Of a DNA stretch of 34,807 nucleotides, positions 1 to 34,807 are shown piece after piece. The stretch is from the IMG/VR virus record IMGVR_UViG_2526164649_000022; one strand, written 5' to 3'. Within the stretch, counting starts at the first letter, position 1. Each line of letters starts with the position of its first letter. The stretch is from a virus. Its lineage: Duplodnaviria > Heunggongvirae > Uroviricota > Caudoviricetes. The notes beneath the pieces are model-generated. The model worked only from the letters and a program-made list of their open reading frames with translations, ran no database searches and had not been told where the DNA came from. Made by a program: the position numbers and the translations under genes.

Positions 1-738
1 TCACTTCGGGTAAGGCTGAATCCTGAATAGCTTAGTATTTAGTCGCTTTCTTGCGCGCTTGTTCAGGAACCTGATGTAACGATATTGATTAAATTTGTGT
101 ACCACGGCCCGCTCCTTATTCGCTCGTAAATATTCGCCGCGCTTCCCTCCACGATTAATCGCATTCATCGTTATCTCGTGATACCACTCACCGTCCAGTT
201 CGTAGAATATGCTTTCATGGCTGCCAATAAAATCAAAATTTGACGCCTGATACACAACACCTGCACACCCGCAACGTTCGTCTGCAAAGGACTGAACCCA
301 CTCCACTGACGGATACAGTAACCTGATGGTTTTCAGCGCGTAGCTGATGGCCCGTGATTCAGAGTTGCGGGGCATGTCGTCGTGTAGCCACATGCGGTTC
401 AGTTCCATATAGCCCCGGTTATCCGTTTCAAGCACAACGCGACGCCCTGAGTTGGGGTTAAGGGCATATCCCCACTGAAGAACACCAACCAGATCACGTC
501 CACTGAATACGCCCAGATGCAACCAGGAGTTATTCACAAAACGGCGGGAATAATGCTTTGTCTGAATGATTGTGCGGGCCAGCCAGCAGGATATGGTTTC
601 AACGCGCAGCTCCCTTGAACCATAGCCGACAATCCGGCCTTCATACTCAATAACGCAGGGTTTTGTCAGAATGCGTGATTTCTTCTCTTTTCCCACAATA
701 CAGCTCCGTGGGATGCTCCCGGGCACTCGATATGACAA
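1..738 (-). CDS. mom: Mom-like DNA modification (anti-restriction) protein; stop codon at window positions 1-3; start uncertain because the reading frame overlaps com
   Basis: 245-aa ORF immediately downstream of, and overlapping, a recognisable com zinc-finger gene, as in the Mu com-mom operon at the phage right end. Confidence 0.7.
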
Positions 739-9591: not shown

Positions 9592-10865
9592 CAGTCGGTG
9601 ATCTCCACAGGTTGCGTCGGCAGGATGAATGACGGATGACGCAGGCGGTTACGCTGCACGATTTCATCCCGTCGGCGTGTGTCACCATGCTCGCGCCATG
9701 CCAGCAATGCGGCAGAGGTGGTTGTGGTCAGCGTCACCTGCCGGGTTTCCGGCAGACGGGCGGCACGCTCGCGGGCATCCGTAATCACGGCCTGCCGTAA
9801 ATCGCGCAGCGTTCGCCACAATGTCCGCTGGTTGTTTTCCACCGCCGCCACCGCCTGCTCATGCAGTTCAGCCGCCAGCGTGTCACCGGCAGATAACGCC
9901 GCATCACGGGTATCGAACGTCATCGAGGCCACGGCACTGGCCTGTCCCAGCAGGGCTCCCAGCACAACCACCTGGCGGAAGTCGTCAATGTTCTTTTGCA
10001 GGCTGTCAGATACCGGCTGATAATCCGGTGACAGCCCGATGGCAAAGCCGGGGTTGCCGTCTGCCACGCTGCCGGGCTTCACGGTGATATCTTCCGGCAG
10101 TGCGCCGGTGGCAATCTGCCTGGCACGTTCTCCGGCCCACTGGTTGCGTAATGTCGTGTAAACCGCCAGTGCTTCGGGTGGTTCCGTCACAAGGCCCGCA
10201 ATATCTTCCACCCGTGCTGACAGCTCACTGACCAGACGCCCCGGTGTGGCAATGAGGGTTCCGGCCATCGCCTTAAAATGCTTCAGCCTGTCCATCCACT
10301 GATTCAGTGCTGCCGGTAACGTGGGCAGGTTAGCCACAAGGTTTTCCATATCGGCCAGAAAACTGTCGGCCATGTCACCCAGCCCGTCGAGTGCGCCGAA
10401 CCAGTCGCCATCGTCAATGGCGGCTTTCACCGCATCAATGCCTGTCAGCACTTCCTGCTGCGTGTTATCCGCCGCAGACGGGAACAGGCGCTCGCCTGCC
10501 TCAAACACTTCAAAGGTGACATACGCAATGCCGTCTTCCTCCGTGCAGAGGCGATGGGTGACCTTGCCAACCTGTACGGTCTGTATCCCGAACCACGGGT
10601 GGACAAGCTCGCCGGGGCCGGGGGTATTGAGCGCATCTAAAAGGGCGTTTAAATCATCCCGGAAGTTTTTACCTGGCAGCTTTGCGTTAATCTGCTGTTG
10701 CCCCGGAACGGCCCCGTTATCATCCGTCCAGGCGGTTTCACGCCGGGGATAAGCACGGGGAATGGCACGACGACCACCGGTGCCCTCCGTATCCACCAGA
10801 AAGAAGGGGACGCCACGAAACGAGGCGTCGCGCAGCCCGTCCCATTTACCGTTGCTCGTTGTCAT
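9591..10865 (-). CDS. DNA circulation protein N-like (Mu gp43-like)
   Basis: 424-aa ORF immediately downstream of the tape measure gene with overlapping start/stop. Confidence 0.6.
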   Translation of the reverse strand: MTTSNGKWDGLRDASFRGVPFFLVDTEGTGGRRAIPRAYPRRETAWTDDNGAVPGQQQINAKLPGKNFRDDLNALLDALNTPGPGELVHPWFGIQTVQVGKVTHRLCTEEDGIAYVTFEVFEAGERLFPSAADNTQQEVLTGIDAVKAAIDDGDWFGALDGLGDMADSFLADMENLVANLPTLPAALNQWMDRLKHFKAMAGTLIATPGRLVSELSARVEDIAGLVTEPPEALAVYTTLRNQWAGERARQIATGALPEDITVKPGSVADGNPGFAIGLSPDYQPVSDSLQKNIDDFRQVVVLGALLGQASAVASMTFDTRDAALSAGDTLAAELHEQAVAAVENNQRTLWRTLRDLRQAVITDARERAARLPETRQVTLTTTTSAALLAWREHGDTRRRDEIVQRNRLRHPSFILPTQPVEITD

Positions 10866-12685
10866 TAACCCTGCTCCACGCTGGTGACGCCAGCCTGCGC
10901 ACTGAGTCTGACGCCGGGTTGATCCACTCTGACGCTTTTCACGCGGGCATCACCTTCCACCACCACACGGATTTCCCCCTGCAATTGTTGCGGAAGGAAA
11001 GGATAATTCTGTGTGGGTTGCATACCTGCCCACGGTCGCGGGTCGGCAATGTTCTTGTCACCCAGCGAATTAAACCAGTCCGTTACCTTACGCCAGACGG
11101 ACTCGAGCGCTTTCTGGTTATCCTGGCTTTGTTGAGCGAACTCGCGCTCCCACGGGCTGGCGCTGGCATCACCGGCAACGAATTTTGTAAGGCTGTCAAC
11201 CTCACCTGGTAGGGCATATTGCGTGGTCAGAAAATCGTAAAACTCCAGAGCACCGGCAATGATGCCAGCGCCTTTACCTGCCTTTCCTCCACAGTTACCC
11301 GAACCTCGTGGATTGCGTGGGTTACGGGGATTGCGCGATGAATCCGGCGCATCCGGCAGACCGCCGGTATTACCCTTCAGCCCGCCACTGCCCATATTGA
11401 CCACATAAACCGGCATCACGCCGGAACCAAAAACATCCGTAATGCTGCCGGGTATCCCTTTGCCTTTCCCTTTGGGATTCATGATGTCGTGGATGGTTTT
11501 ACCGAACCTGTACGTCTTTCTGATGGCGATAATGCCGCCCAGCGCCGCCATATATTTACCGACCTGCAACCAGTTCTGGACAGTGTTCTGGTCCACGCTG
11601 TTAATGGCATCCGCCAGATCCTGAACGGGCTTTGCCAGTTGCCCTTCAGCGAAACGTTGCCATTCGTTATTCAGCGACTGCATCGCGGCATTAAAGCCTT
11701 CGGCATTGGTCTGTGCGGCCTTTTGCGTGGAACCCTGTTCAGCCATGCCGTAAATCATTTTCTCCAGCAATTGCCGGTTCTCCGGGCTGAGTAACGCCTT
11801 AATCCCCTGCATCCCGGTCTGATCAAACACATCCTGAAGTTTCAGCGGGTCGTATTTAGCCCGTTTGAGGATTTCCATCATCAGTTCATAGGGCTTTTTA
11901 ATGTCTTTTGTGCCTTTGACAAAAACGTCAACCCCGTTTTTTTTCAGGAACTCAATGTTCTTTTTGTCCGACAGGGAGGCATACATGGCCTGAATACTGG
12001 TCACTGTCTCATCAATGCTGCCTTTGTTTTTGGCAAACACCTGAGCAAATGCCCCCATCTGCGCAATGGCTTCCGGTCCCTGATCCTGAATGATGGAAAA
12101 CAGTTTCGGGGCCGCGCGGGCAACATCAGCAACGCTGACAGAACCCACCGCGAACTGTGCATACAACCTGTCCATTGTGTTGCTGACCGCATCAGCGCCC
12201 CGGACACCTTTTTCCCAGAACTGCGCCATCATCCCGGCTGCCACCTGTCCGTCAACACCAAACGCCTGCATAAACAGCCCCATGTTGCGCAGGTTGTCCA
12301 CCACATACTGATAATCACCGGTTTTTCCCAGCAGGGCATCAACCCCTTCACCGAGGGCTGAGGCATCAATACGGATATCCTTCTGACTGGAAACGTCCCG
12401 GATCGCGTTCTTCAGCGTGTTGACCTGCTCTGCGTTTAATTTGGCATTGGTTCCCATACGCCGCATCTGAGCATCAAAATCAGCCACGCCTTTTACCGTC
12501 ATGCTGCCACCAAGCTCGGCAATCATCGCCGTGTAGCGGTTGCCAAGCGCATCCAGACTGCGCCCAGCGGCGTCGGTTGTGGCTTTGACCAGGCGCATGG
12601 CTTTCTGGTTATTCCGGGCGAACTGCGACATATTCGCGCCATACTGCCGGGCTTTGGCGGTCAGGTTCCCGGCAAGGTTGATCAT
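10865..12685 (-). CDS. Tail tape measure protein, apparently intact, start MINLAGNLTAK at 12685
   Basis: About 606 aa, Ala/Gly/Gln-rich with Gly-rich C-terminal segment; the track ORF (to 12847) is extended by read-through from the IS600 end. Confidence 0.75.
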   Translation of the reverse strand: MINLAGNLTAKARQYGANMSQFARNNQKAMRLVKATTDAAGRSLDALGNRYTAMIAELGGSMTVKGVADFDAQMRRMGTNAKLNAEQVNTLKNAIRDVSSQKDIRIDASALGEGVDALLGKTGDYQYVVDNLRNMGLFMQAFGVDGQVAAGMMAQFWEKGVRGADAVSNTMDRLYAQFAVGSVSVADVARAAPKLFSIIQDQGPEAIAQMGAFAQVFAKNKGSIDETVTSIQAMYASLSDKKNIEFLKKNGVDVFVKGTKDIKKPYELMMEILKRAKYDPLKLQDVFDQTGMQGIKALLSPENRQLLEKMIYGMAEQGSTQKAAQTNAEGFNAAMQSLNNEWQRFAEGQLAKPVQDLADAINSVDQNTVQNWLQVGKYMAALGGIIAIRKTYRFGKTIHDIMNPKGKGKGIPGSITDVFGSGVMPVYVVNMGSGGLKGNTGGLPDAPDSSRNPRNPRNPRGSGNCGGKAGKGAGIIAGALEFYDFLTTQYALPGEVDSLTKFVAGDASASPWEREFAQQSQDNQKALESVWRKVTDWFNSLGDKNIADPRPWAGMQPTQNYPFLPQQLQGEIRVVVEGDARVKSVRVDQPGVRLSAQAGVTSVEQG

Positions 12686-12752
12686 GATTTCCGTGCTGAG
12701 ACGGCTACCTGAGGTGTACTGGCAATAGCGGACACTACCATTTGTTCTTTTT

Positions 12753-13571
12753 TTAAGCAGCCATCTGATGATATTTTTCCCTGAAGGCTGCCGGGGAGAT
12801 ATTCCCCAGACGAGAGTGACGACGCTGACGATTGTAGAAAATCTCAATGTATTCCCGTATTACTGAGATGGCTTCATCCCGGTTATTAAAACGATAGTGG
12901 CTCAGGCTCTCATTTTTCAGCGTTCCCCAGAAGCTTTCCATCGGAGCGTTGTCGTAACAGTTACCTTTACGCGACATTGATGTTTTCAGACCAGACTGCT
13001 CCTGTATGACCCGGTAATCGTATGCGCAGTACTGTGAACCTCGATCAGAGTGGTGGATTAGCCCGGCAGGTGGGCGCTGGCTCCTGAGCGCCATAAACAG
13101 GGCTTTACCTGTCAGCTCTTTTGTCATGCGCTCTCCCATGGCGTAGCCGACAATTTCACACGTATAAACATCTTTGATGCCAGCGAGGTACAACCATCCC
13201 TCCTGTGTGGCAACATACGTCAGGTCCGCCACCCAGACCTGATTTGGTGCTGTAGGAGCGAACGTCTGGTTCAGCAGATTTGGCGCAACTGGCAGATTGT
13301 GGTTCGGGTTCGTAGTCGCTCTGAACTTGCGTTTCTGCTTACAGCGTAGCCTTAGCTCCTTACGAAGACGTGCCAGTCGGTCACGACCAACGATGATGCC
13401 ATTCTCTGCCAGCTCCGTCTGGAGCCGCCGGGTTCCATATGTTTCGCGAGTGCGGATATGTGCCACCTTAATCTCCAGTTTTAGCCGCTCATCACTTTGT
13501 TTTCTGTCTGAGGGTTCATGCTGTACCCAGTTGTAATAACCGCTCCTGGATACACCAAATACCTGACACAT
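12753..13571 (-). CDS. IS600 transposase OrfB (DDE integrase domain)
   Basis: 272-aa ORF with IS3-family integrase features, downstream of OrfA. Confidence 0.9.
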   Translation of the reverse strand: MCQVFGVSRSGYYNWVQHEPSDRKQSDERLKLEIKVAHIRTRETYGTRRLQTELAENGIIVGRDRLARLRKELRLRCKQKRKFRATTNPNHNLPVAPNLLNQTFAPTAPNQVWVADLTYVATQEGWLYLAGIKDVYTCEIVGYAMGERMTKELTGKALFMALRSQRPPAGLIHHSDRGSQYCAYDYRVIQEQSGLKTSMSRKGNCYDNAPMESFWGTLKNESLSHYRFNNRDEAISVIREYIEIFYNRQRRHSRLGNISPAAFREKYHQMAA

Positions 13572-13606
13572 CGCTTCAATGGGAAATTGTTGTCGCCATT
13601 GTTCGA

Positions 13607-13909
13607 TTAACGCGTATTTTTCAGCGACTCCTGTGCAAAATACGCTGTTGCTTTTTTTAATATATCTCGCTCAAGGCGAGCTTCATTTAACGCCTTACGC
13701 AGTTGCAGAATTTCAGATTCCAGTTCAGCCACCGTGCGGGAACCAGGAGTACCGAGCCCTTTTCTGGCGGCGGTAACCCATTGTCCTAAAGTGCCTTCAG
13801 GAAGGGATAATCGGGAAGCGCCTTCACTGATCGAAAGTTGATTTTCAAGAACCGTTCTGACAGCTTCGGCTTTGAACTCTTTAGAGTAACGTTGGGTTTT
13901 TCTGCTCAT
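13607..13909 (-). CDS. IS600 transposase OrfA (HTH/leucine zipper)
   Basis: 100-aa ORF MSRKTQRYSKEFKAEAVRTVLENQLSISEGA..., typical IS3-family OrfA. Confidence 0.9.
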   Translation of the reverse strand: MSRKTQRYSKEFKAEAVRTVLENQLSISEGASRLSLPEGTLGQWVTAARKGLGTPGSRTVAELESEILQLRKALNEARLERDILKKATAYFAQESLKNTR

Positions 13910-13965
13910 TATTAGCTCCTTCTGATGCCATTCTATTTCAGGAAGGAGTGTCCGTTAAACTCAGG

Positions 13966-14181
13966 CTACCTCAACCTGTTGCCATACTGTTTCTCCAGTT
14001 GCTTTATCAGGCGGAACAACTGCCGCAGGGGCAGTTGTTCCAGGTACTGAATGCTGAATCGCGAAGACAGGTTAACCAGCAGGTTCATCAGTGCCGCCGC
14101 CAGCGGCATCAGTTCGCCCCCGCGTTGCCACCTCCTCAAGCATGTCATCCAGCACAGCCGCTTTCGTGCTGATAAGCTCAA
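13966..14181 (-). CDS. Frameshift extension frame of the tail assembly chaperone (G-T-like); last two codons and stop lie in the IS600 terminus
   Basis: ORF overlapping the 3' end of the chaperone gene in another frame, with a G5 run (C5 on plus strand, 14117-14121) at the overlap. Confidence 0.45.
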   Translation of the reverse strand: MSLSARKRLCWMTCLRRWQRGGELMPLAAALMNLLVNLSSRFSIQYLEQLPLRQLFRLIKQLEKQYGNRLR

Positions 14182-14467
14182 GGTCTGCCGGGTGGAGCAT
14201 TCGCAGCTGTTTCATGTCCAGCGGGCCGGGGATATTACCGATTGACGCAACCTGACGGCGCATCATCTCCAGTCCCATCAGCACCTCAGAACAGTAGGCC
14301 ACCGCCTTTCCGTTCCCGCCCATGACGACGCGTTCTGCGGCCAGTTGCGCATCAATCACATCACTGGCGGTCAGTTCGCGCAGTTTCACGGTTTTATGCA
14401 GGGTTTCATCTGCCGTGCCTTTGCCGGTCAGAAGCCCGTGTTTCAGTTCAAATTCCATTGCGGCCAT
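14072..14467 (-). CDS. Tail assembly chaperone (Mu gp41-like)
   Basis: 131-aa ORF between tail tube and tape measure, the conserved chaperone position. Confidence 0.6.
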   Translation of the reverse strand: MAAMEFELKHGLLTGKGTADETLHKTVKLRELTASDVIDAQLAAERVVMGGNGKAVAYCSEVLMGLEMMRRQVASIGNIPGPLDMKQLRMLHPADLELISTKAAVLDDMLEEVATRGRTDAAGGGTDEPAG

Positions 14468-14468
14468 G

Positions 14469-14825
14469 TCACACCTTCACGCATTTTTCACCGATAAAGT
14501 TGGCACTGATGGTGCCGGAATCCTCGTCCAGCTCTGCCGGGTTATCCGTGGCGGAACCCGTCATCATGTAGTTCAGGCCGTTGTCGCCGTAGAACATCAC
14601 CGTGACATCTTCCCAGCTGCTGATTTCAATCACGTCCATATCCGCTGCCGCCGCAATGGTTACCTTGATGGACGGCGAGGCCATCTTGCTGGAGATACCC
14701 CAGACCTTGCCGCCGCCCATATGCTGGGTGCGGCTGAAGCCGCCCGGATTCAGCGTGGATTTCCCCTCGGTTTTAATTTCGCGGCCATTCACGCGAATGG
14801 TCGCCATGCCAAGAATTTTTGCCAT
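14469..14825 (-). CDS. Tail tube protein (Mu M-like)
   Basis: 118-aa ORF immediately downstream of the sheath gene. Confidence 0.65.
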   Translation of the reverse strand: MAKILGMATIRVNGREIKTEGKSTLNPGGFSRTQHMGGGKVWGISSKMASPSIKVTIAAAADMDVIEISSWEDVTVMFYGDNGLNYMMTGSATDNPAELDEDSGTISANFIGEKCVKV

Positions 14826-14834
14826 GTGGCCCCC

Positions 14835-16310
14835 TTAAAGCTTGAACTGAATCAGGCCTGCCAGCACACGCAACTGGTTCACCAGATTCGGGTGGCAGAT
14901 AAAGTTCAGGCGGTTTTTATCGCTGCTGTCGCGTGTCACCTGAAGCGTGTCCCTGTAATCGCTGAAGTTTTCCACAAGGCCCGCCGGGAGAAGTTCGGTC
15001 TGGCAGATATCCAGCAGCTCTGCAGTGCACAGCTTCGGCGTCATCACCGGCTGCCCCGCATCCAGCGAGTCCAGCACGTCATCATCCGCCAGCTTGTGGC
15101 GCGGATAACGGTTCGAGAAACGGTTTTTAATGATGTAACGGATACGGCCCAGCGTGGCGGGTGACTGCACATCAAGATACGACACATCCGCATCACCGTA
15201 CTGGTTAACCCAGTACATGGTGATTTCACGCTCGATGCAGACGTTATCCCCGGCGTCCACCATGTGCGTGGCAATGCCGTCATGCAGCAGCAGGTTACGT
15301 TCCGGCATATCCCAGCGAACATTACGCGCAGGCGGCAGAATGCCGGTCAGGACCAGCGTCTGAAGCGGACGCGCCGGGTCAATGGCAAGGTGATACGCTG
15401 CCGTTGCGCCGTATGACGCGGCCCACATCCACGCCGGATGCGGCGACAGGTTGGTGCCGATGCAGCTAATCAGCCAGTCATTGCGGGTTTCACCAAACGT
15501 GCCGGTTTCCCCGTGCGTGCCACGAAACGCCGTCCACAGCTGCGCTTCCATCATTTTGAGCGGCCCCCAGCGGTTCAGCAGTTCATCACGCAGGGTGTTC
15601 AGGCTTTTCGTGTCGGTGAACGGGGCGATGATATCGGTAAACCACTCCGGGCCGATGGCCGCAACGGCGTCTGCCATTTCCGGTGTCCCGGTGCCGCCGG
15701 TAAACGCGGTTGCGGTCACCTTCACACCTGCCGGGAAGGCTTCACCGGTGTGGTAGTTCAGGCGAACGTCGGCACCGTTGCCGGTGACGCCGTGCCAGTT
15801 CACGGTCAGCTCCACGGTATCCGTGGCATCATCCTTCACCGCAGCGGCCACCTGCGTGGCAGGCTTTTTCGTCACCGCATCAGCAATGGCTTTTGCAATG
15901 TTTTCCTTCGTATCCCCGGCGCTCACGCTCACCTGAACGGACACACCGTTAATCAGCAGTGCCACCGTTCCGGCTTCGGTCGCTGTACCCAGCACGGTCA
16001 GCGTGGCTTTTGCGGCAGCGCCTTCAGGAGCGGCAACCGGCATCGCCCAAGTTTCCGTGTACGTGTTGGCACGACGCAGCATTTTGAGCATTTCAGCCAG
16101 CATCGACCCTTTGCCATAAAGCTGGTCTGCCTGGCTGTCACTGGTGATACGGGTCAGTGACAGGGCGTCTGCGCTGCCGGACGATACCGCATGGCCCATG
16201 ACCAGAATTTTTCGGCTTTGCGCGGATGCACCCTCCAGTGCCTGTGAATTGTCGATATCGATCCAGACAAGCGGGACGCGGATATCATCAGGAATGGAAC
16301 CCAGCGACAT
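14835..16310 (-). CDS. Tail sheath protein (Mu L-like)
   Basis: 491-aa ORF, size and position of contractile tail sheath. Confidence 0.8.
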   Translation of the reverse strand: MSLGSIPDDIRVPLVWIDIDNSQALEGASAQSRKILVMGHAVSSGSADALSLTRITSDSQADQLYGKGSMLAEMLKMLRRANTYTETWAMPVAAPEGAAAKATLTVLGTATEAGTVALLINGVSVQVSVSAGDTKENIAKAIADAVTKKPATQVAAAVKDDATDTVELTVNWHGVTGNGADVRLNYHTGEAFPAGVKVTATAFTGGTGTPEMADAVAAIGPEWFTDIIAPFTDTKSLNTLRDELLNRWGPLKMMEAQLWTAFRGTHGETGTFGETRNDWLISCIGTNLSPHPAWMWAASYGATAAYHLAIDPARPLQTLVLTGILPPARNVRWDMPERNLLLHDGIATHMVDAGDNVCIEREITMYWVNQYGDADVSYLDVQSPATLGRIRYIIKNRFSNRYPRHKLADDDVLDSLDAGQPVMTPKLCTAELLDICQTELLPAGLVENFSDYRDTLQVTRDSSDKNRLNFICHPNLVNQLRVLAGLIQFKL

Positions 16311-33273: not shown

Positions 33274-33337
33274 TGAGGTAGCCTGAGTTTAACGGACACT
33301 CCTTCCTGAAATAGAATGGCATCAGAAGGAGCTAATA

Positions 33338-33640
33338 ATGAGCAGAAAAACCCAACGTTACTCTAAAGAGTTCAAAGCCGAAGCTGTCAGAACGGTTCTT
33401 GAAAATCAACTTTCGATCAGTGAAGGCGCTTCCCGATTATTCCTTCCTGAAGGCACTTTAGGACAATGGGTTACCGCCGCCAGAAAAGGGCTCGGTACTC
33501 CTGGTTCCCGCACGGTGGCTGAACTGGAATCTGAAATTCTGCAACTGCGTAAGGCGTTAAATGAAGCTCGCCTTGAGCGAGATATATTAAAAAAAGCAAC
33601 AGCGTATTTTGCACAGGAGTCGCTGAAAAATACGCGTTAA
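33338..33640 (+). CDS. IS600 OrfA (copy 2; one Ser-to-Phe difference from copy 1)
   Basis: 100-aa ORF identical to copy 1 except SRLSLPEG to SRLFLPEG. Confidence 0.85.
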   Translation: MSRKTQRYSKEFKAEAVRTVLENQLSISEGASRLFLPEGTLGQWVTAARKGLGTPGSRTVAELESEILQLRKALNEARLERDILKKATAYFAQESLKNTR

Positions 33641-33675
33641 TCGAACAATGGCGACAACAATTTCCCATTGAAGCG

Positions 33676-34493
33676 ATGTGTCAGGTATTTGGTGTATCCA
33701 GGAGCGGTTATTACAACTGGGTACAGCATGAACCCTCAGACAGAAAACAAAGTGATGAGCGGCTAAAACTGGAGATTAAGGTGGCACATATCCGCACTCG
33801 CGAAACATATGGAACCCGGCGGCTCCAGACGGAGCTGGCAGAGAATGGCATCATCGTTGGTCGTGACCGACTGGCACGTCTTCGTAAGGAGCTAAGGCTA
33901 CGCTGTAAGCAGAAACGCAAGTTCAGAGCGACTACGAACCCGAACCACAATCTGCCAGTTGCGCCAAATCTGCTGAACCAGACGTTCGCTCCTACAGCAC
34001 CAAATCAGGTCTGGGTGGCGGACCTGACGTATGTTGCCACACAGGAGGGATGGTTGTACCTCGCTGGCATCAAAGATGTTTATACGTGCGAAATTGTCGG
34101 CTACGCCATGGGAGAGCGCATGACAAAAGAGCTGACAGGTAAAGCCCTGTTTATGGCGCTCAGGAGCCAGCGCCACCTGCCGGGCTAATCCACCACTCTG
34201 ATCGAGGTTCACAGTACTGCGCATACGATTACCGGGTCATACAGGAGCAGTCTGGTCTGAAAACATCAATGTCGCGTAAAGGTAACTGTTACGACAACGC
34301 TCCGATGGAAAGCTTCTGGGGAACGCTGAAAAATGAGAGCCTGAGCCACTATCGTTTTAATAACCGGGATGAAGCCATCTCAGTAATACGGGAATACATT
34401 GAGATTTTCTACAATCGTCAGCGTCGTCACTCTCGTCTGGGGAATATCTCCCCGGCAGCCTTCAGGGAAAAATATCATCAGATGGCTGCTTAA
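33676..34493 (+). pseudogene. IS600 OrfB (copy 2), frameshifted by a 1-bp deletion
   Basis: Copy 1 reads AGCGCCCACCTGCC, copy 2 AGCGCCACCTGCC (about 34171-34176); ORF splits into 33676-34188 and 34269-34493. Confidence 0.8.
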
Positions 34494-34536
34494 AAAAAGA
34501 ACAAATGGTAGTATCCGCTATTGCCAGTACACCTCA

Positions 34537-34807
34537 CAGGATTGCGTGTTTTTCTGGTAACAGCTTTCACTTCAGAAACATTGTTCTCTGTAGCCACCAG
34601 CTGTTCCACATAGCGTTCACGCAGTGCCTTTCGTGTTATTTCAGGCAGACAATCAATGTGGTACTCAATGGCTTTTGTGCCTTCCCGACGGCGACTAACG
34701 TCACCAAGATCACGAGAAAAACGCTGTAACGCCTGTCGGATGCCTTTTGTGGTGGCTGGCATTCCTGGTACGCCGAGCAGGTCATTTACGGTAACGTACG
34801 ACTGCAT
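34537..34807 (-). pseudogene. A: N-terminal 90 codons of the Mu A-like transposase gene, separated from the rest by IS600 copy 2
   Basis: ...GTKAIEYHIDCLPEITRKALRERY resembles the recalled MuA N-terminus (...GGKAIEYNANSLPVEAKAAL...); in frame with the 31955-33273 segment once IS600 and one duplication copy are removed; ATG at 34805-34807. Confidence 0.75.

Follow-up and report, generated by a model that had tools for sequence, protein, structure and literature searches.

A Mu-like prophage with a probable Mu-type programmed −2 frameshift cassette in its tail assembly chaperone gene

Results

The window analysed in this study, that is, the whole 34,807-nt stretch of DNA in the IMG/VR record IMGVR_UViG_2526164649_000022, consists of an entire Mu-like prophage on the minus strand, with genes for the transposase (start at 34807), MuB, terminase, portal, protease, capsid, tail, baseplate and mom (1..738). 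In its contractile-tail module, the tail sheath gene (14835..16310, minus strand; Pfam Phage_sheath_1, Phage_sheath_1C and Phage_sheath_domII) is followed by the tail tube gene (14469..14825, minus strand; Pfam Tail_tube, E = 4e-38), by a gene for a protein of 131 aa directly downstream of it (14072..14467, minus strand) and by the start of the tape-measure gene (ATG at 13985). The same order of sheath, tube, chaperone and tape-measure genes is present in intact homologues and in Mu. The 131-aa protein matched the Pfam family Gp41_Mu (PF23746) over the full profile, positions 1–107 (E = 4.1e-37), and PHROG 508, ‘tail assembly chaperone’ (E = 8e-37); a weaker match was to Phage_TAC_7 (E = 5e-07), the family that covers E of phage P2. 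A tblastn comparison with Mu gave 46.7% identity (E = 5e-16). An earlier reading of the window, made from its letters and open reading frames (ORFs) and called here the sequence-only reading, had taken this ORF for a Mu-like tail assembly chaperone, and the family match and the position between the tube and tape-measure genes bear this out. By analogy, the product of 14072..14467 may be regarded as the counterpart of lambda G.

A second ORF, 71 aa as listed, overlaps the 3′ part of the chaperone gene on the same strand (13966..14181). The two starts are 286 nt apart (14467−14181 = 286 = 3×95+1), which places the second ORF at +1, or equivalently −2, relative to the chaperone frame, exactly as first described. 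The ORF itself stands, but its two ends have to be read differently: the TTG ‘start’ at 14181 is meaningless for a frameshift product, whose −2-frame part would begin at 14115, and at the other end, 13966, the last two codons and the stop are not native to the phage.

These non-native codons, TTG AGG TAG (Leu-Arg-stop, 13966..13974, minus strand), were brought by an insertion of IS600, an IS3-family element of 1264 bp (12710..13973, minus strand; Pfam HTH_Tnp_1, rve and HTH_21), with orfA at 13909..13607 and a 272-aa orfB at 13571..12753, both on the minus strand. It shares 99.5% identity with sequences annotated ‘IS3-like element IS600 family transposase’, and the 3-bp target duplication GGT is present on either side of it (13976..13974 and 12709..12707). 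Its junctions were read against an intact E. coli homologue (L003), which is 99.7% identical across the region and lacks IS600. For the intact FDAARGOS_943 prophage, which has no IS600 here, the 99.7% identity extends over 926 nt, from the end of the sheath gene through the tube and chaperone genes and the extension to the tape-measure start. In this homologue, the frame ends with …KQLEKQYGNR followed by TAG (AGG TAG), and the tape-measure ATG lies 11 nt upstream of that stop, so overlapping the end of the extension. In the window, IS600 sits two codons before the native stop, and the last base of the target-site duplication together with the IS600 terminus turns …GNR-stop into …GNRLR-stop. 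The same …GNRLR-stop end was seen in one other IMG/VR contig (IMGVR_UViG_2529293240_000020). The tape-measure gene has been cut in two by the insertion: its orphaned start, ATG GCA ACA GGT (13974..13985, minus strand), runs into a TGA from the IS600 end and encodes MATG followed by a stop, while the body of the gene (10865..12709, minus strand; homologues annotated ‘phage tail tape measure protein’) is separated from its start codon. Immediately past IS600, the body has an internal ATG, Met-12 of the native protein, from which a tape-measure protein may still be made.

A second IS600 copy of about 1263 bp lies in the opposite orientation at approximately 33274..34536, with the target duplication CTG, and interrupts the MuA-like transposase gene (ATG at 34807, minus strand). 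Its orfB ORF (33676..34188, plus strand) encodes 170 aa rather than the 272 aa of the first copy, a difference that points to a frameshift mutation. Since the transposase and tape-measure genes are both disrupted, the prophage is very likely defective, and it is probably a decaying remnant. In the orfA/orfB overlap of the first copy, there is an A AAA AAA G run (13658..13651, minus strand), which we take to be the classic −1 programmed frameshift motif of the IS3 family; the window would thus carry programmed frameshift signals of two different kinds, separated by about 460 nt.

Read on the minus strand in the chaperone frame, the sequence within the overlap is GCA ACG CGG GGG CGA ACT, with a run of five G's at 14121..14117, and the run and its ACG CGG GGG CGA ACT context are as the sequence-only reading had given them. 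That reading had pointed to the G-run as the signal; the run is indeed part of it, but the full signal is the octamer GG GGG CGA (14114..14121, minus strand), which includes the CGA codon and is the same as the site of Mu. In the 0 frame, the octamer is read as C GG/GGG/CGA, corresponding to Arg116-Gly117-Arg118 (codons 116–118 of 131), the P-site codon being GGG and the A-site codon CGA. The octamer, GGGGGCGA, was found once in the window, at 14114..14121 on the minus strand. Shuffled windows contained 1.7 matches on average, so a single match is unsurprising, and the significance of the octamer comes from its frame, position and conservation. In 177 kb from 28 representative loci, searched on both strands, it occurred 30 times, and 28 of these occurrences were the chaperone site.

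The comparative set was drawn from IMG/VR, GenBank phages and RefSeq E. coli; a search of genome contigs with the single protein found no relatives. It comprised 111 relatives (100 IMG/VR loci and 11 GenBank/RefSeq loci), which formed 28 clusters at <85% identity, the lowest identity to the window protein being 45%. Conservation of the G-run in homologous phages, on which the sequence-only reading had staked its proposal, was found at every one of these loci: [C/A]GG GGG CGA was present and in frame in 111/111. Among the best 80 IMG/VR relatives (100% to 45% identity), all 80 had the site in frame, 77 with CGG and three with AGG, and it was also present in 20/20 Mu-type IMG/VR relatives. In an alignment of nine chaperones, from phages of E. 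coli, Klebsiella, Shigella, Shewanella, Vibrio, Alteromonadaceae and Pasteurella and from Mu, Arg-Gly-Arg was invariant near the C-terminus and was encoded by [C/A]GG GGG CGA in all nine. Given Arg-Gly-Arg, local codon usage (GGG, 14% of Gly codons; CGA, 9% of Arg codons; CGG plus AGG, 19% of Arg codons) gives these exact codons a probability of about 1e-3 per lineage. The rule that NGG GGG CGA stands in frame near the 3′ end of a Gp41_Mu gene thus held in all 111 loci, and the signal itself was established in this analysis together with its frame, position and conservation.

The native −2-frame extension is 47 codons long (13975..14115, minus strand; ELMPLAAALMNLLVNLSSRFSIQYLEQLPLRQLFRLIKQLEKQYGNR) and matched PHROG 38797 (E = 1e-31). 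By analogy, it may correspond to the lambda ‘T’ segment. In each of the 28 clusters, the −2 frame runs for 44–51 codons without a stop and closes no more than about 20 nt from the tape-measure start; in the window, IS600 has lengthened the native 47 codons to 49. Beyond Arg-Gly-Arg, the 0-frame tail is 1–13 aa long and is unrelated between lineages. Codon-position nucleotide diversity, computed on 49 unique enterobacterial sequences, was 0.269, 0.170 and 0.446 at 0-frame positions 1, 2 and 3 upstream of the site, and 0.188, 0.084 and 0.298 at −2-frame positions 1, 2 and 3 in the extension-only region. The most variable codon position changes from that of the chaperone frame to that of the −2 frame exactly at the site, and the −2-frame pattern is present even within the overlap. 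Such a change of phase would be expected where purifying selection acts on the −2 frame rather than on the 0-frame tail.

At high divergence, pairwise identity barely discriminated between the extension frame and the other frames (0.23 vs 0.22 and 0.21), so that the codon-position test above and a profile test were needed. A profile built from non-enterobacterial extension peptides scored 41.8 bits (E = 7.5e-12) against the window-type extension, while the best of 2000 shuffles reached 7.8 bits. The profile of non-Mu extensions scored 5.3 bits against the Mu extension, which is within the shuffle range; what the Mu and window extensions have in common is their length, their position and a short LPL(R/S)R(L/F) motif. 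The overlap and extension, proposed earlier as features that should be conserved, are therefore kept in length in the 28 clusters and in protein sequence outside the Mu clade.

Two other features of the 3′ end were observed in individual lineages. One locus (IMGVR_UViG_2718217984_000001) is the sole complete locus with a shortened −2 extension, of 32 aa, presumably caused by an indel; it may represent a decaying prophage or a sequencing error. In many marine relatives (L008, L009, L068, L071, L074, L079, L081–L083, L086, L087, L089–L091 and others), the 0-frame stop follows one codon after the slip site (CGA NCT TAA/TAG, the tail being P, S or A). In these relatives, a terminator lies one codon past the A site of a ribosome positioned on the slip site, and a one-codon tail implies that the short chaperone form needs nothing after Arg-Gly-Arg.

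Upstream of the octamer is a Shine-Dalgarno (SD)-like sequence, GAGGAGGTGG (14128..14137, minus strand), a candidate 5′ stimulator suggested by its predicted anti-SD duplex and by synonymous conservation. Its conserved core, GGAG (14135..14132), is part of GAGGAGG in the window; it precedes the octamer by 10 nt and the P-site GGG by 12 nt, and occupies positions −13..−10 when counted from the C of CGG. The duplex predicted with the 16S rRNA 3′ end has an energy of −13.0 kcal/mol and ranks in the top 0.2% of windows in the locus. Across the comparative set, the upstream SD-like match was better than 90% of control windows in 21 of the 28 clusters, and a GGAG, GAGG, AGGA or GGGGG core starting at −16..−12 from the C of CGG was present in 25 of the 28. 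In 48 unique enterobacterial chaperone sequences, four of 115 third-codon positions were invariant, and two of these (−13 and −10) complete GGAG; the codon ending at −13 varies in the amino acid that it encodes (Glu, Ser, Thr, Ala or Met), but its last base is always G. Glu codons in the SD-like stretch were GAG in 25 cases and GAA in one, compared with 114 GAG and 165 GAA elsewhere in the same 28 genes (Fisher p = 1e-8, with lineages that are not independent). A synonymous-resampling control in which the protein was kept gave a median P of 0.19, with P ≤0.05 in 1/28 clusters and ≤0.25 in 20/28; this control is suggestive and speaks for the SD-like element in aggregate only. No counterpart of the element was found in Mu or in any of 20 Mu-type relatives.

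Downstream of the site, the window can form a 7-bp GC hairpin starting 5 nt past CGA, with z = 0.04 versus dinucleotide shuffles, and no structure above shuffles was found in Mu (z = 0.47) or the Klebsiella lineage (z = 0.12). A downstream hairpin was rejected as a conserved stimulator because it folds no better than shuffled sequence. An Rfam scan of the window gave no family at threshold. Strong hairpins were observed within the extension coding region of several marine lineages of the Shewanella and Vibrio type (L008, L010, L081, L088 and L072), at about +23 to +55 nt past CGA (starts at about 23–36 nt; z = −1.3 to −4.4 vs shuffles). They differ in sequence and share a similar position (…A-M-S-S-R…), none is present in the window lineage or Mu, and their distance from the site is too great for canonical stimulators.

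Discussion

In this study, we found in a Mu-like prophage that the gene for the tail assembly chaperone ends in an arrangement that is very probably a Mu-type programmed −2 ribosomal frameshift cassette. The conservation of the site in frame and the switch of diversity to the −2 frame both support what the sequence-only reading had proposed, a programmed shift other than −1 at the G-run; a −1 slip would end after two codons (GGG GCG AAC TGA). Xu, Hendrix and Duda are said to have described the programmed −2 frameshift of Mu gp41 in 2004. The Mu site, GG GGG CGA, undergoes tandem −2 slippage, in which the A-site tRNA-Arg, with its ICG anticodon, finds better pairing after a move to the −2 frame than after one to the −1 frame (PMC3458567), and the efficiency of the shift is about 2.2% (PMC3498833). 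In the GenBank record of Mu, AF083977, the homologous gene has two annotated products: Mu_41, and Mu_56, a CDS in two segments that bears the note ‘verified −2 translational frameshift in PMID 15469818; tail assembly chaperone frameshift product’. The non-−1 shift that the earlier reading had attributed to Mu-like phages is therefore borne out for Mu, and a comparison with the annotated Mu gp41 site shows the same octamer in the same frame: Mu and SfMu read GAA CGG GGG CGA GTG in the chaperone frame, and the window reads ACG CGG GGG CGA ACT.

Mu and the window also agree in the Gp41_Mu family of the chaperone, in the order of tube, chaperone and tape-measure genes and in an extension of about 50 codons that continues in the −2 frame up to the tape-measure start. 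They differ in that the chaperone bodies are only about 47% identical and the extension peptides have no detectable homology past a short LPLxR motif. In the window lineage, a strong SD-like element, GAGGAGG, precedes the octamer by 10 nt, whereas Mu has none; the extension stop overlaps the tape-measure start in the native locus of the window lineage, whereas a 14-nt gap separates the two in Mu; and the 3′ end of the window has been altered by IS600.

On the model of Mu, from whose experiments we infer the slip itself, the majority of ribosomes would terminate at 14072 and produce the 131-aa short form, the putative analogue of lambda gpG. In a minority, the ribosome would slip backward by two bases on GG GGG CGA when GGG (14119..14117) occupies the P site and CGA (14116..14114), a rare codon decoded by inosine, occupies the A site; tRNA-Gly would re-pair with GGG and tRNA-Arg with GGC, and decoding would resume in the −2 frame at GAA (14115). 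The predicted fusion would consist of residues 1–118 plus the extension, giving about 165 aa in intact relatives (extension of 47 aa) and 167 aa here (extension of 49 aa), and the extension would end at the start of the tape-measure gene.

The same frame would be reached by a +1 shift, in which the P-site tRNA-Gly moves from GGG to GGC while the slow CGA codon waits in the A site, and the fusion would then lack one residue (…TRG-ELMPL…). Sites of +1 shifting typically have a slowly decoded codon such as CGA in the A site, and the two directions are inseparable by sequence alone. Nevertheless, the identical octamer of Mu was found by experiment to shift −2, and the comparative data most likely favour −2 over +1 in the window as well. 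The Arg codon before GGG is always NGG, with the four other Arg codons never seen in 111/111 loci, and the two G's that are invariant here are needed for −2 re-pairing and not for a +1 slip. Furthermore, SD stimulators act 9–14 nt upstream of −1 (backward) shifts and 3 nt upstream of +1 shifts (PMC5009743), and the conserved GGAG lies 10 nt from the octamer and 12 nt from the P-site codon, both within the range for backward shifts and not at 3 nt. We consider a +1 shift to be very improbable. The ‘+1/−2’ of the sequence-only reading is thus right as to the frame, and the invariant NGG and the SD-like spacing narrow its direction to −2.

A still smaller likelihood attaches to the view that no recoding takes place and that the overlapping ORF is open by chance or is a small gene in its own right, initiated for example at an ATG 5 nt after CGA with the G-run acting as the ribosome-binding site. 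The window does have an ATG in the −2 frame (…GAA CTG ATG CCG…), 7 nt past the G-run; PHROGs holds the extension as a stand-alone family of 58 aa of unknown function (phrog_38797); and the fusion product is absent from the RefSeq annotation. Against this, the Met position is occupied by Val, Thr, Lys, Gln or Leu in relatives, so that there is no conserved start, and initiation of the extension at the nearby ATG was rejected for that reason. In 28 clusters, the frame remains open with its length and end point conserved, with purifying selection in that frame from the octamer on, and independent initiation would leave the synonymous invariance of GGG and CGA unexplained. Least likely of all is slippage of RNA polymerase on the G5 run, by which some mRNAs would gain one G or lose two and yield the fusion by standard translation: the homopolymer run lies at the frame junction and such slippage is used by some bacterial and phage genes, but the known bacterial runs are of about nine A or T (PMC5009743), against which five G's are short, the invariant CGA and the upstream GGAG would not be required, and the case of Mu is described as ribosomal.

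Returning to the −2 ribosomal frameshift, we note that the GGAG upstream of the site may be a frameshift stimulator that has not been described before. No description of an SD-like element was found in the literature consulted on the Mu-type −2 system. Outside Mu, GGAG or GAGG 10–13 nt upstream could form a second conserved part of the cassette, whose pairing with the anti-SD would push the ribosome back; we put this forward tentatively, as a reading that falls a little short of probable. A parallel is dnaX of E. coli, which shifts −1 on A AAA AAG and likewise has an internal SD-like sequence, 10 nt upstream of its slip site. Unlike the window, with its predicted −2 shift, dnaX shifts −1 at about 50% efficiency, and it needs a 3′ stem-loop, whereas no significant 3′ structure was found in the window. 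If the proposal is correct, this would be the first SD-stimulated −2 frameshift, and the efficiency in the window lineage would be expected to be clearly above the roughly 2% of Mu, which lacks the element.

Two chaperone forms with a common N-terminus, the longer of which arises from an inefficient frameshift shortly upstream of the tape-measure gene, are also produced by lambda (gpG/gpGT) and P2 (E/E+E′). The lambda shift is −1, at the slip site G GGA AAG, and differs from the −2 shift proposed for the window; the slippery sequences are different, and no sequence homology to lambda G/T was detectable. Neither of the lambda-type forms is found in the virion, and both G and GT bind the tape-measure protein, with the extension recruiting the tube subunit (PMC5009743). 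By this analogy, the tape-measure protein of the Mu-like phage would be coated by both forms, and the −2-frame extension would recruit tail-tube subunits. In the window, the cassette itself is intact but probably a relic, its client tape-measure gene having been broken by IS600, and given this disruption the frameshift signal may no longer serve a function.

The RefSeq (PGAP) records of the E. coli homologues (H31–H60; L003–L005) carry ‘phage tail assembly protein’ only and no frameshift product, apart from an extra ‘hypothetical protein’ under the extension match in a few of them. The frameshift products of the Gp41_Mu family are thus a systematic annotation gap, and the main practical value of the present work is for annotation, as the NGG GGG CGA rule could be applied automatically.

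In summary, the frameshift cassette described here is a new instance of a known, Mu-type recoding system, real but ordinary, in a prophage that the IS600 insertions mark as a decaying remnant. The system has been known since 2004, and only the SD-like sequence may be new. Natural −2 cases are few, Mu being among them (PMC5009743), and the Gp41_Mu family offers many natural variants of one such rare event, a gain for the understanding of the mechanism that is modest. The upstream GGAG, which is absent from Mu, provides a testable hypothesis on how the efficiency of −2 frameshifting may be tuned in this family.
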